From NCBI RefSeq assembly GCF_003334335.1, contig NZ_QOWQ01000002.1: a stretch of DNA of 64,000 nt; one strand, 5' to 3'. The number at the start of each line of letters is the position of its first letter. Position 1 is the stretch's first letter. Below, in pieces: positions 32,066 through 35,000 of this stretch. The notes under the pieces were generated by a model. That model was not told the DNA's origin. It did no database searches and saw nothing but the letters and a program-made list of their open reading frames with translations. Source of the DNA: Escherichia coli (GTDB taxonomy: Bacteria > Pseudomonadota > Gammaproteobacteria > Enterobacterales > Enterobacteriaceae). Made by a program: the position numbers and the translations under genes.

Positions 32066-35000
32066 ATGCGGATTATCTTTCTACGCAAGGAGTATTTATC
32101 TTTACTCCCGTCAATGATTGCATCTCTTTTCTCTGCTAACGGTGTCGCGGCGGTCACTGATTCATGCCAGGGATATGATGTCAAAGCGAGTTGTCAGGCC
32201 AGCAGGCAAAGCCTTTCAGGCATTACGCAGGACTGGAGTATCGCTGATGGGCAATGGCTGGTTTTTTCGGATATGACCAATAACGCCAGCGGTGGGGCCG
32301 TATTTTTGCAACAAGGAGCGGAATTTTCACTATTACCAGAAAATGAAACTGGAATGACTCTGTTTGCCAATAACACCGTTACAGGAGAATATAATAACGG
32401 CGGGGCCATATTTGCTAAAGAAAACTCAACGCTGAATCTTACTGATGTTATTTTTTCCGGTAACGTCGCAGGCGGCTATGGTGGCGCAATCTATTCTTCT
32501 GGTACTAACGATACTGGTGCCGTCGATTTACGTGTCACTAACGCCATGTTTCGCAATAACATCGCTAATGATGGCAAAGGTGGCGCAATTTATACCATTA
32601 ATAATGACGTTTATTTAAGTGATGTTATTTTTGATAACAACCAGGCATATACATCAACAAGTTACAGTGATGGCGATGGCGGGGCAATCGATGTTACCGA
32701 TAATAATAGCGACAGCAAGCATCCTTCAGGTTATACGATAGTAAATAACACTGCCTTTACAAATAACACTGCCGAAGGTTATGGCGGGGCGATATATACC
32801 AATAGCGTGACGGCTCCCTATCTTATTGATATTTCTGTTGATGACAGCTACAGCCAGAACGGAGGCGTGTTAGTCGATGAGAACAATAGCGCAGCAGGCT
32901 ATGGAGATGGTCCTTCCTCTGCGGCGGGTGGCTTTATGTATCTCGGCTTAAGTGAAGTTACCTTTGATATTGCCGACGGAAAAACGCTGGTTATTGGCAA
33001 TACAGAGAATGACGGAGCTGTTGACTCTATTGCTGGTACCGGGTTAATCACCAAAACAGGTTCCGGCGATCTGGTACTTAATGCAGATAACAATGACTTT
33101 ACTGGTGAGATGCAGATTGAAAACGGTGAAGTTACCCTGGGCCGCAGCAACTCCCTGATGAATGTCGGCGATACGCATTGCCAGGACGATCCGCAAGACT
33201 GCTACGGTCTGACGATAGGGAGTATTGATCAGTATCAGAATCAGGCTGAGCTAAACGTTGGCTCGACCCAACAAACTTTTGTGCACGCATTGACGGGCTT
33301 TCAGAATGGCACTTTAAATATCGATGCTGGTGGCAACGTTACTGTTAATCAGGGCAGTTTTGCTGGCATCATCGAAGGTGCTGGTCAGCTCACCATTGCG
33401 CAAAACGGCAGCTACGTGCTGGCAGGGGCGCAGTCGATGGCGCTAACCGGCGATATAGTCGTTGATGATGGTGCGGTGCTTTCGCTGGAAGGCGACGCGG
33501 CAGATCTTACCGCTCTCCAGGACGATCCGCAGTCGATCGTGTTAAACGGCGGTGTGCTCGATCTCTCTGATTTCTCCACCTGGCAGAGCGGCACATCATA
33601 CAACGATGGCCTTGAAGTCAGTGGCAGCAGCGGAACGGTTATCGGCAGTCAGGATGTGGTAGATCTTGCAGGTGGCGACAATTTGCATATCGGCGGCGAC
33701 GGGAAAGATGGCGTCTACGTGGTGGTCGATGCGAGCGACGGGCAGGTAAGTCTGGCAAACAATAATAGTTATTTGGGCACAACACAAATCGCCTCCGGTA
33801 CGCTGATGGTGAGCGACAACTCGCAGCTTGGAGATACCCACTATAACCGCCAGGTTATCTTTACCGATAAGCAACAAGAAAGCGTGATGGAGATTACCTC
33901 CGACGTTGACACGCGTTCAGATGCGGCAGGCCACGGACGTGATATTGAAATGCGCGCCGACGGTGAAGTGGCAGTTGATGCGGGGGTAGACACGCAGTGG
34001 GGCGCACTGATGGCTGACAGCAGCGGGCAGCATCAGGATGAGGGTAGCACATTGACTAAAACGGGGGCTGGTACACTGGAGCTGACCGCCAGCGGTACAA
34101 CGCAGTCGGCGGTACGTGTCGAAGAAGGCACCCTGAAAGGTGATGTTGCTGATATCCTTCCTTATGCTTCGTCACTGTGGGTTGGTGATGGGGCAACGTT
34201 CGTTACTGGCGCGGATCAGGATATTCAGTCAATTGATGCTATTTCCAGCGGCACTATCGACATCAGCGATGGTACGGTTTTGCGCCTGACCGGGCAGGAT
34301 ACTTCCGTCGCCCTTAATGCCTCACTATTTAACGGCGATGGGACGCTGGTGAATGCCACCGATGGTGTGACGTTGACAGGTGAGCTTAATACCAACCTTG
34401 AAACTGACAGCCTGACTTATCTTTCCAACGTGACGGTTAATGGCAATCTGACCAATACGTCCGGTGCGGTTAGCCTGCAAAATGGCGTCGCTGGCGATAC
34501 GCTGACGGTAAACGGTGATTATACCGGCGGCGGTACGCTACTGCTCGATAGCGAATTAAACGGCGATGACTCGGTAAGCGATCAATTGGTGATGAACGGT
34601 AATACTGCTGGCAACACAACTGTGGTGGTTAACTCCATTACAGGGATTGGTGAGCCGACATCGACAGGCATTAAAGTGGTTGATTTCGCAGCTGATCCCA
34701 CGCAGTTTCAAAACAATGCGCAGTTCAGTCTGGCAGGCAGCGGCTACGTCAATATGGGAGCGTATGACTACACGCTGGTGGAAGATAACAACGACTGGTA
34801 TCTGCGATCGCAAGAAGTAACGCCGCCATCGCCACCTGATCCAGACCCGACTCCCGATCCTGATCCCACGCCGGATCCTGATCCAACACCCGACCCGGAA
34901 CCTACGCCTGCTTACCAGCCGGTGTTGAATGCCAAAGTTGGCGGTTATCTCAATAACCTGCGGGCGGCAAATCAGGCGTTTATGATGGAGCGACGCGATC

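Follow-up and report, generated by a model that had tools for sequence, protein, structure and literature searches.

Alternating charged/proline dipeptides form extended, protease-resistant rods that span a fixed distance in TonB (Glu-Pro/Lys-Pro) and in trypanosome procyclin (Glu-Pro/Asp-Pro), and the autotransporter pertactin of Bordetella carries two repeat motifs, R1, (GGXXP)n, and R2, (PQP)n. The proline-containing repeats of the pertactin passenger vary in copy number among isolates and species (PMC8931430), as does the repeat described here. Closer in architecture is TibA, in which residues 627–677 make up an additional proline-rich domain between the junction region and the membrane-embedded C-terminal domain (PMC3835316). 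For YfaL, a literature search found no paper on the proline-rich segment, on the tandem repeat that encodes it, or on the locus as a VNTR/MLVA marker. We suggest, with good confidence, that this segment is a proline-rich tether encoded by a degenerate in-frame repeat, the length of which drifts slowly in the manner of a VNTR.

The repeat lies in a plus-strand open reading frame at positions 32066..35818 of the window, by which we mean the whole 64-kb stretch of DNA that was analysed. The frame is the yfaL/ehaC coding sequence, for an AIDA-I-type (type Va) autotransporter adhesin of 1250 aa. It matches the NCBIfam equivalog NF007285 at 2812 bits (cut-off 1459) over positions 1–1250 of 1250, confirming the name YfaL that the earlier note had given it, and identical E. 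coli DNA (451 nt at 100% identity) carries the RefSeq label 'AIDA-I family autotransporter adhesin YfaL/EhaC'. The NCBIfam search covered the full protein and the Pfam scan aa 601–1250. The passenger ends in an autochaperone, or pertactin-like C-terminal cap, at aa 794–914 (34445..34807, plus strand; last residues DYTLVEDNNDWYLRS), recognized by the Pfam families AC_1 (aa 794–904, E 1.1e-18) and Pertactin (aa 811–914, E 2.5e-9) and by a PATR repeat. This region can be aligned with 4MEE, the AIDA-I transport unit, and with two structures of the IcsA autochaperone (3ML3 and 5KE1), and AlphaFold models it as beta strands. A predicted alpha-helix that would plug the barrel pore follows at aa 956–970 (34931..34975, plus strand); it corresponds to residues 167–181 of the AlphaFold model, with pLDDT 84–92, and matches the helix region of 4MEE from query residue 168. 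The beta-barrel translocator occupies aa 989–1228 by Pfam (35030..35749, plus strand; PF03797, E 8.9e-35; TIGR01414, E 5e-116; homology to 4MEE, E 8.8e-36), and the model shows one helix and then 12 long strands, reaching aa 1249 (mean pLDDT 84.5, pTM 0.80). With a full-length equivalog match, a helix-plugged 12-strand barrel and an autochaperone after a beta-helical passenger, YfaL is, as judged from sequence matches and the predicted model, an autotransporter of the AIDA-I type.

The repeat falls where the earlier note had placed it, between passenger and translocator: the autochaperone ends at aa 914, the helix starts at aa 956 and the beta-domain spans aa 989–1228. From translation, composition and the AlphaFold model, the linker was delimited as aa Q916–A949 (34811..34912, plus strand), a proline-rich acidic peptide reading QEVTPPSPP(DPDPTP)3DPEPTPA. 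Its 34 residues include 16 Pro (47%), 7 Asp, 5 Thr and 2 Glu, with seven Asp-Pro bonds and without Lys, Arg, aromatic or large aliphatic residues. In the model, aa 920–948 alone have a pLDDT below 50 and form neither helix nor strand, and the same residues gave a weak Pfam match to procyclin PARP repeats (E 0.26, below significance). The low pLDDT is compatible with the flexible linker that had been proposed, and equally with a stiff polyproline-II spacer. As the linker joins the autochaperone cap to the pore helix and barrel, it sits just outside the outer membrane, and the acidic X-Pro chain would tether the beta-helical passenger, with its autochaperone cap, to the anchor formed by the pore helix and the 12-strand barrel. 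The rise of a polyproline II helix is 3.1 Å per residue. The linker may be pictured as an extended, protease-poor spacer without a globular fold, up to roughly 7–12 nm long depending on the allele. We infer both this spacer role and the neutrality, or near-neutrality, of the length changes described below.

Within the linker, Tandem Repeats Finder and a comparison of units identify four tandem in-frame 18-bp units of the form CCN GAY CCN GAN CCN ACN (34835..34906, plus strand), encoding PDPDPT three times and then PDPEPT. In codon register the units are CCTGATCCAGACCCGACT, CCCGATCCTGATCCCACG, CCGGATCCTGATCCAACA and CCCGACCCGGAACCTACG, and the array peptide, (PDPDPT)3 PDPEPT, runs from P924 to T947. 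Tandem 18-bp repeats encoding (PDPDPT)n, which the earlier note had reported at 34821–34910, are thus present, as four units in frame in the YfaL open reading frame. Tandem Repeats Finder reported the array at 34838–34908 with a period of 18, 3.9 copies, 75% matches and a score of 65, and scored it also at a period of 36 (score 86). The period-18 self-identity of the array is 0.74, compared with 0.26 ± 0.06 over all 72-nt windows of the 64 kb, and 0.74 is reached solely by nine overlapping windows starting at 34830–34839, all of them on the array; since nothing else in the 64 kb matches it, the repeat is beyond chance. Pairs of units are identical at 12–15 of 18 nt, and every difference falls at the third position of a codon: between units, first and second positions agree in 36 of 36 comparisons each, third positions in only 7 of 36 (19%). 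With position 3 mostly different and positions 1 and 2 invariant, the similarity of the DNA is no greater than the repeated peptide forces. The description of a nucleotide-level tandem repeat therefore holds in that the DNA carries a period-18 array, but not beyond that, the wobble positions being scrambled and the repetition lying at the level of the peptide. The longest exact internal repeat found by unit comparison is the 11-nt GATCCTGATCC, with two plus-strand copies 18 nt apart (34856–34866 and 34874–34884). An antisense open reading frame at 34556..35002 (148 aa) arises mechanically from the repeat, which it reads through as Arg/Ile/Trp-rich sequence.

The yfaL locus is present in 5,420 of 5,426 complete E. 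coli genomes, and within the gene, large differences in length among strains are confined to the linker. Among 22 sequenced loci there were 19 linker peptides in nine length classes (22, 26, 28, 30, 32, 34, 36, 38 and 40 aa). Lengths step by 2 aa, all 22 alleles are in frame, and the indels are multiples of 6 nt, many of them 18 nt. Two systematic samples of 60 gave about 62–67% for the 34-aa class, 23% for 28 aa, 5–7% for 36 aa and 3% for 26 aa, and contained 30- and 38-aa classes as well. The most common allele, that of the window, occurs at an identity of at least 99% in 1,927 genomes, about a third of all; the allele counts are lower bounds, drawn from alignments with a readable span and identity and from fetched sequences. 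In 15 of 20 intact alleles the annotated coding sequence differs in length from that of the window by exactly the linker difference. The length polymorphism that the earlier note had predicted is thereby confirmed, with at least nine classes from 22 to 40 aa and single-step changes on identical flanks, and an invariant copy number, the outcome it had named as speaking against its proposal, is not what the E. coli alleles compared display. The linker also diverges in sequence: between phylogroups it differs by 12 substitutions in 102 positions, against 11 in 240 in the flanks, making it 2.5 times more divergent, an excess that could reflect relaxed constraint or selection. Replacements inside the units include D to A, D to E, D to N and T to I. 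A single slippage step is not enough to explain some of the allele differences, which are complex, as when the 28-aa 'DPIPA' type is compared with the 34-aa 'DPEPTPA' type. Assemblies of Shigella sonnei are interrupted within the linker; the break may stem from an IS insertion or from an artefact of assembly or coverage.

Several alleles are single steps away from a common haplotype. For the window haplotype, the +18 product expected from slippage was found in strain CFS3246, matching over 318 nt at 100% identity, while the −18 product on the 36-aa haplotype is the 30-aa allele of strain 042; the observed breakpoints of the +18 and −18 alleles are the copies of the 11-nt GATCCTGATCC. Smaller steps involve the tandem hexamers GATCCT-GATCCC (34856..34867, plus strand), of which one is lost in 32-aa alleles (L011/L012) and gained in a 36-aa allele (L015), with 0–3 flank mismatches per 240 nt. 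Derivatives of −18, −6 and +6 were found with 0 of 240 flank mismatches (L009, L010, L011 and L015, all 0/240). A synthetic query lacking all four units was split by Megablast into two perfect pieces and is informative for flank identity only, and the identity bands of synthetic queries are in general confounded by such two-piece alignments. A rare in-frame deletion of 168 bp has its ends in the two plus-strand copies of an exact 12-nt repeat, CTGATCCCACGC (34692..34703 and 34860–34871); strain VTB97022v (L008), which has it, aligns in two blocks of 100% identity sharing 12 nt.

In the 34-aa allele L019 the exact repeat reaches 38 nt. The 28-aa haplotype contains a 20-nt exact repeat with two perfect 18-mers. 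Its predicted −18 product was found in 14 genomes (at least 99.6% identity) and its +18 product in 3 (100%), against 464 with the native form; the window haplotype, with its 11-nt repeat, has about 10 derivatives against 1,927 native. Derived alleles thus make up about 0.5–3.5% of a haplotype. These numbers are suggestive of more variants on the perfect-repeat haplotype, and of slippage tracking repeat perfection, but no more than suggestive, since derived alleles are not phylogenetically independent: porcine ETEC or STEC clonal groups may each represent a single event, and the records of CFS3246 and 'strain 35' have identical lengths, which bears on their independence.

Taken as a mechanism, short exact sub-repeats (the GATCCN hexamers and the 11–20-nt repeats of period 18) would occasionally misalign during replication or recombination, adding or removing 6, 18 or 24 bp. 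The randomized wobble positions imply that such slippage is infrequent and proceeds through these short exact sub-repeats. Since every product keeps the reading frame, the protein continues to be produced and only its tether is lengthened or shortened; because the changes are infrequent and mostly fixed by lineage, the locus behaves as a slow protein-coding VNTR and not as a switch. Whole-unit copy differences between strains and single-step variants on identical haplotypes place it among VNTRs. The earlier view of the polymorphism as slippage-driven is upheld as far as length changes with breakpoints in exact repeats are concerned; the changes are infrequent, however, and the site is neither hypermutable nor phase-variable. 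Laboratory-evolution mutations of yfaL, checked for slippage, were SNVs outside the repeat in one study (PMC6389913) and, in another, frameshifts and substitutions that all lie elsewhere in the gene, none in the repeat (PMC7536353).

Slow, near-neutral drift is not the only way to read these data. A tandem repeat inside a surface adhesin gene recalls contingency loci, in which YfaL would be turned on and off by frameshifts in the repeat, and Ag43 is indeed phase-variable, though by a different, Dam/OxyR mechanism (PMC3764049); but all 22 alleles are in frame, the repeat is imperfect and the gene is annotated as intact in nearly all genomes, and we give this reading practically no credence. Phase variation was rejected on the unit length, as units of 6 or 18 nt are multiples of three and slippage among them keeps the frame. 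Selection on length, with each lineage tuning its linker to reach past its own O-antigen or capsule, would account for length classes that are largely lineage-specific: ST131, Nissle and U12A have the 34-aa B2 type with its NPTPPP head, many STEC and B1-like strains have the 28-aa type, and 042-like strains the 36/30-aa type. The X-Pro character and the reading frame are kept in all alleles, and at 3.1 Å per residue the range of 22–40 aa is calculated to cover roughly 7–12 nm if extended. Nevertheless, an identical 34-aa allele is common to K-12, which has no O-antigen, to O157:H7 and to many unrelated serotypes, and the single-step variants turn up sporadically on identical haplotypes, where nothing points to a sweep; we therefore regard tuning as unlikely. 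Somewhat less probable again is that the repeat is an exposed, immunodominant proline-rich epitope whose copy changes aid escape from antibodies, as proposed for the pertactin repeats. The linker is surface-exposed and unstructured in the AlphaFold model, it diverges by substitution more than its flanks, with amino-acid replacements within the units, and pertactin, also an autotransporter, has variable R1 and R2 repeats (PMC8931430). Within lineages, however, variants are rare, about one genome in three carries the commonest allele, and yfaL expression is low in the K-12 datasets seen.

The linker could also be a release site, with the passenger shed through cleavage by a protease of the host or of bacteria, or through the attack of stomach acid on Asp-Pro bonds, but we hold this to be very improbable. 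Asp-Pro is the most acid-labile of peptide bonds, and the Neisseria IgA1 protease uses proline-rich autoprocessing sites. The position of the linker suits shedding of the whole passenger and the linker offers seven Asp-Pro bonds; the listing of yfaL among GadE/GadX-regulated genes counts in favor as well (PMC4918353). The protease-accessible linker suggested by the earlier note finds no support, and against proteolysis stands the composition of the linker, which, lacking Lys/Arg, aromatic and bulky aliphatic residues, contains no trypsin-like, chymotrypsin-like or OmpT sites. No peptidase family was found on YfaL by NCBIfam (full protein) or Pfam (aa 601–1250), and the linker holds no recognizable cleavage motif. 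Release is further opposed by the description of group-8 autotransporters, including YfaL, as anchored in the outer membrane (PMC9289746), and by fusions to YfaL residues 786–1250, which had their full predicted size and were in the outer-membrane fraction (PMC7138890). Moreover, Asp is replaced by Glu, Asn, Ala or Gln in homologues and in some alleles. Fainter still are the prospects of one special form of this reading, in which the acid-labile (Asp-Pro)n tether would work as a fuse: its Asp-Pro bonds would hydrolyse at gastric pH, so that in the stomach the YfaL passenger would be shed, in full or in a share that differs by lineage according to the number of such bonds; if true, this would fit the report of yfaL in the GadE/GadX acid-stress regulon, and copy number would set the probability of shedding as well as reach.

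A proline-rich linker whose length is varied by slippage is, then, real in YfaL, and ordinary for surface proteins of this kind. Nearly all length variation of YfaL between strains falls in one 100-bp segment, which explains the differences in annotated YfaL length. The linker alleles (the B2 head variant, the 28-aa 'DPIPA' type and the 36/30-aa 042 type) are informative about lineage, and the segment could serve as a minor typing marker. For surface display with YfaL(786–1250), the tolerated natural linkers of 22–40 residues represent a natural design range, and in a rare allele annotated as intact as many as 56 residues are missing from the autochaperone and linker together. The locus is, suggestively, a small and clean case of a slippage rate that follows repeat perfection under scrambled wobble positions. 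Its practical value is modest, and a new biological question would arise only if linker length or Asp-Pro chemistry proves to be functional.

Comparison with relatives of YfaL shows how such linkers vary over longer distances. Homologues at 28–38% identity from Citrobacter, Yersinia and metagenomes have D/E/T-Pro linkers of about 10–55 aa at the same junction, bounded by NWYL(R/T)S at the end of the autochaperone and by (Y)RPE..Y at the start of the pore helix. Like YfaL, the proteins of Citrobacter farmeri and Yersinia enterocolitica and the metagenomic proteins P0056, P0074, P0080, P0093 and P0120 have a repetitive Pro/Asp-Glu-Thr linker, but their linkers differ from that of YfaL in unit sequence and length. 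AIDA-I (4MEE) aligns on both sides of the junction, with about 10 residues between, compared with about 39 in YfaL. Since units and lengths vary among homologues and AIDA-I is almost linker-free, the feature is conserved in kind and not in sequence.

Among described systems, TibA and YfaL are both of AIDA-I type and, as likened by description, have a proline-rich domain in a matching position; by position, by proline content and by the predicted lack of globular structure, the YfaL linker fits the TibA type of proline-rich domain. That of TibA is longer (about 50 aa) and belongs to a different protein, and copy-number variation among strains is not described in the available part of its report (PMC3835316). 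A Pfam Pertactin domain is present in YfaL too, immediately N-terminal to the linker, but the repeats of pertactin form loops that lie on the beta-helix or close to it, unlike the autochaperone-to-pore-helix tether of YfaL, and their variation is tied to vaccine-driven selection, which has no known counterpart in YfaL. The likeness to TonB and procyclin is one of composition only, without homology and in a different cellular location; three YfaL homologues have precomputed PF05887 matches. With typing VNTRs the YfaL linker shares changes by whole units that break within exact repeats and, suggestively, a larger number of variants on purer repeats, but it is far less variable than VNTRs of typing grade, and its units are degenerate at the wobble positions.

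The gene yfaL carries a tandem array of 18-bp units (CCN GAY CCN GAN CCN ACN), in frame within 32066..35818 (+; 1250 aa), the sole long ORF at the site. Four units (nt 34835–34906, +) lie within a linker, Q916–A949 (nt 34811–34912, +), that is flanked by ...NDWYLRS and YQPVLNAK... and comprises 16 Pro, 7 Asp, 5 Thr, 2 Glu and one each of Gln, Val, Ser and Ala. The window reads ACG CCG CCA TCG CCA / CCT GAT CCA GAC CCG ACT / CCC GAT CCT GAT CCC ACG / CCG GAT CCT GAT CCA ACA / CCC GAC CCG GAA CCT ACG / CCT GCT at 34820–34912, and the peptide T919–P948 from the array region is TPPSPP(DPDPTP)3DPEPTP. 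The tandem repeat is real and far above chance expectation: Tandem Repeats Finder called 34838–34908 (period 18, 3.9 copies, 75% matches), and at period 18 the array matches itself with an identity of 0.74, a value reached by only nine overlapping windows, all on the array; 72-nt windows over the entire 64 kb average 0.26 (sd 0.06). The earlier note spoke of a nucleotide-level repeat, which holds for the period-18 array in the DNA but not for any similarity beyond what the peptide imposes. Comparison of the six unit pairs gives identity of 36/36 at codon position 1, 36/36 at position 2 and 7/36 at position 3, and the same peptide with randomised wobble bases would yield the observed 12–15/18 nt. 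As exact repeats within the array reach at most 11 nt (GATCCTGATCC, at 34856 and 34874) and also include a tandem hexamer pair, GATCCT-GATCCC (34856–34867, +), slippage is predicted to be possible but infrequent at those tracts.

Two further features accompany the array. GATC (Dam methylation/MutH) sites number 6 in 78 bp at 34806–34883 against 0.36 expected from the window density (Poisson P ~2e-6), because Asp-Pro codon pairs read GAT-CCN. An antisense ORF (148 aa, GTG start, minus strand 34556–35002) crosses the repeat as an Arg/Ile/Trp-rich stretch; unsupported as a gene, it most likely stays open because the repeat is GC-rich and poor in stop codons.

The gene is YfaL/EhaC, as proposed: it matches the NCBIfam equivalog NF007285 over its full length (2812 bits), and identical DNA in other genomes is labelled "AIDA-I family autotransporter adhesin YfaL/EhaC" in RefSeq. 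The proposed position between passenger and translocator is borne out as well. A Pfam scan of aa 601–1250 placed the AC_1 autochaperone (aa 794–904) and Pertactin (aa 811–914) domains on one side and the autotransporter beta-domain (aa 989–1228) on the other, with nothing on aa 920–948 but a weak, compositional procyclin (PARP) match. In an AlphaFold model of aa 790–1250 (10-sequence alignment; mean pLDDT 84.5, pTM 0.80), beta strands extend to about aa 914 and a helix at aa 956–970 is followed by twelve long strands, while aa 920–948 have pLDDT below 50 and no secondary structure. On both sides of the linker, YfaL can be aligned with the solved structure of the AIDA-I transport unit (4MEE). 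Together these layouts identify the segment as a tether from the passenger autochaperone cap to the pore helix and barrel, located on the external side of the outer membrane. YfaL belongs to autotransporter group 8, the outer-membrane anchored adhesins (PMC9289746), and its constitutive expression raises biofilm (PMC3764049); residues 786–1250, linker included, serve as a display anchor whose fusions are found full-length in the outer-membrane fraction (PMC7138890).

A 451-nt query matched the yfaL locus in 5,420 of 5,426 complete E. coli genomes, with a single match in each; one of these matches lies on a record labelled plasmid, and six genomes gave none. In a systematic sample of 60 records, judged by span, the linker was 34 aa in 40 (451 bp), 28 aa in 14 (433 bp), 36 aa in 3 (457 bp), 26 aa in 2 (427 bp), and 30 or 38 aa in none; with the 28-aa allele as query, a second such sample gave 37, 14, 4, 2, 1 and 1, respectively. 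Each also held one split hit, the identical record, which is the weakest match and hence last. Translation of 22 fetched loci, together with the window, yielded 19 distinct linker peptides in nine length classes (22, 26, 28, 30, 32, 34, 36, 38 and 40 aa), so that the comparison of copy number across strains, set as a test by the earlier note, refuted invariance. All length differences among these loci are multiples of 6 nt, and no out-of-frame allele was seen among them or in the searches. Variation in the length of yfaL falls mainly in the linker, whose difference from the window equals that of the annotated CDS exactly in 15 of 20 intact alleles, and the remaining five have one additional 1–2-codon indel elsewhere.

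The polymorphism is slow and mostly structured by lineage. The window allele is common to 1,927 genomes at ≥99% identity over 451 nt, including K-12, O157:H7 and BL21 relatives; B2 strains (ST131, Nissle 1917, U12A) carry a 34-aa allele whose head is distinct (QEVNPTPPP...), and alleles of the 28-aa class terminate in ...DPIPA. Comparison of the B2 allele with that of the window shows 12/102 nt differing in the linker and 11/240 nt in the flanks, so substitutions also accumulate faster in the linker. One copy annotated as a pseudogene ('missing C-terminus'; L017, NZ_CM128599.1, strain E500002) has a 38-aa linker whose peptide recurs in an Escherichia sp. protein (P0003), and this allele may derive from a divergent Escherichia lineage.

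Slippage had been proposed as the source of length polymorphism, and products expected from exact-repeat misalignment, built in silico, were indeed found, some at 100% identity. For the window haplotype (haplotypes being named by linker length, here 34 aa), the +18 product, duplicated between the GATCCTGATCC copies and giving five units and a 40-aa linker, has 100%-identical matches over 318 nt in CFS3246 and 'strain 35'; the two, of equal record length, are probably one strain. The −18 allele (28 aa) is present in UTME-3 and the +6 allele (GATCCT gained, 36 aa) in WP2-S18-ESBL-08, each with flanks identical over 240 nt, and the −6 allele (one GATCCT lost, 32 aa) in six ETEC genomes from pigs and one isolate from a deer. 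On the 36-aa haplotype, loss of 18 nt between the same 11-nt repeats accounts for the 30-aa allele carried by strain 042 and by at least 25 further genomes. The common 28-aa haplotype (L005) differs from the window allele in having two perfect 18-nt units (CCTGACCCAACACCCGAT twice; 20-nt exact repeat), and a derived 34-aa 'DPIPA' allele (L019) has three (38-nt exact repeat); both look evolutionarily younger, the outcome of recent duplication. Against 464 genomes with the native 28-aa allele at ≥99% identity, its predicted −18 product (22 aa) occurs in 14 genomes at 99.6–100% identity and at least 7 on related backgrounds, and its +18 product (34 aa, three perfect units) in 3 at 100% and 7 at ~97%. 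This haplotype has the highest share of ±18 variants, and derived alleles make up ~3.5% on it versus ~0.5% (~10/1,927) on the imperfect-repeat window haplotype, the direction that slippage predicts, in counts made non-independent by clonal relatedness. The exact-repeat breakpoint rule is also obeyed by an in-frame 168-bp deletion in the chicken isolate VTB97022v (L008, NZ_CP178670.1), which ends at a 12-nt direct repeat, CTGATCCCACGC, with copies in the autochaperone domain (34692–34703) and repeat unit 2 (34860–34871); 56 residues, the autochaperone end and first part of the linker, are lost, and yfaL is still annotated as intact.

Many short-read assemblies of Shigella sonnei (L023–L026), whose first unit is PNPNPT (Asp to Asn), break within the linker: N-terminal contigs end ...CCGGATCCTG, C-terminal contigs begin CGGCCCCTACGCC, and ~16 nt are unaccounted for between them. 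IS insertion and assembly or coverage dropout are the candidate causes.

What these results show is an X-Pro tether, non-globular and located at the cell surface, of a kind conserved across the family, that tolerates lengths of 22–40 residues. It may be a flexible hinge or a stiff rod. Polyproline II rises 3.1 Å per residue; as an extended spacer of this form, the linker would span ~10.5 nm at 34 aa and ~6.8–12.4 nm over the alleles, and would keep the folded beta-helix off the barrel and LPS core. Its length most likely changes by misalignment at GATCCN hexamers and at 11–20-nt period-18 repeats, and these changes appear neutral or under weak selection. Adaptive tuning of length for reach relative to O-antigen or capsule is possible, but one allele is common to rough K-12 and many smooth serotypes, which speaks against tight coupling. 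Antigenic variation is likewise possible by analogy with pertactin, whose R1 and R2 repeats are known to vary (PMC8931430).

That the linker is a cleavage or acid-labile release site is of low probability, even with its seven Asp-Pro bonds and the listing of K-12 yfaL under GadE/GadX regulation (PMC4918353). It has no basic, aromatic or bulky residues and would be a poor substrate for common endoproteases, so the protease-accessible linker suggested earlier is not favoured. Phase variation is ruled out by the repeat unit length, and no signs of on/off switching appeared in the alleles surveyed. Mutations in yfaL recur across several laboratory-evolution experiments (PMC6389913, PMC7536353, PMC10581211); the checkable mutations are SNVs or frameshifts, all outside the repeat.

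No publication on the YfaL linker or on its polymorphism turned up in the literature search. The feature itself would not surprise specialists; it can serve as a minor marker, and its variation is design information for YfaL-based display. The protein search, which added 22- and 38-aa E. coli/Escherichia alleles, found distant homologues 28–38% identical over autochaperone and barrel (Citrobacter farmeri, Yersinia enterocolitica, metagenomes), almost all with a Pro-rich, D/E/T-alternating, internally repetitive linker of ~10 to ~55 residues (e.g., TPDPDPDPNPGPDPDPNPEPDPDPNPGP and PDPEPTPDPDPTPDPEPTPDPDPTPDPGPTPDPDPTPEPDPTP) between conserved NWYL(R/T)S and (Y)RPE..Y motifs. A one-off metagenomic protein (P0009), reading ...GAYDYT/PAYQPV..., lacks the autochaperone end (LVEDNNDWYLRS) and the entire linker, a loss that may be genuine, through deletion at the short ACGC repeat, or may have arisen in assembly. 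From WYLTS to the helix, AIDA-I 4MEE has a gap of ~10 residues, compared with ~39 in YfaL. The YfaL linker is a newly documented example of a well-known kind, the repetitive Pro-rich linker of surface proteins, evolving as a slow in-frame VNTR.
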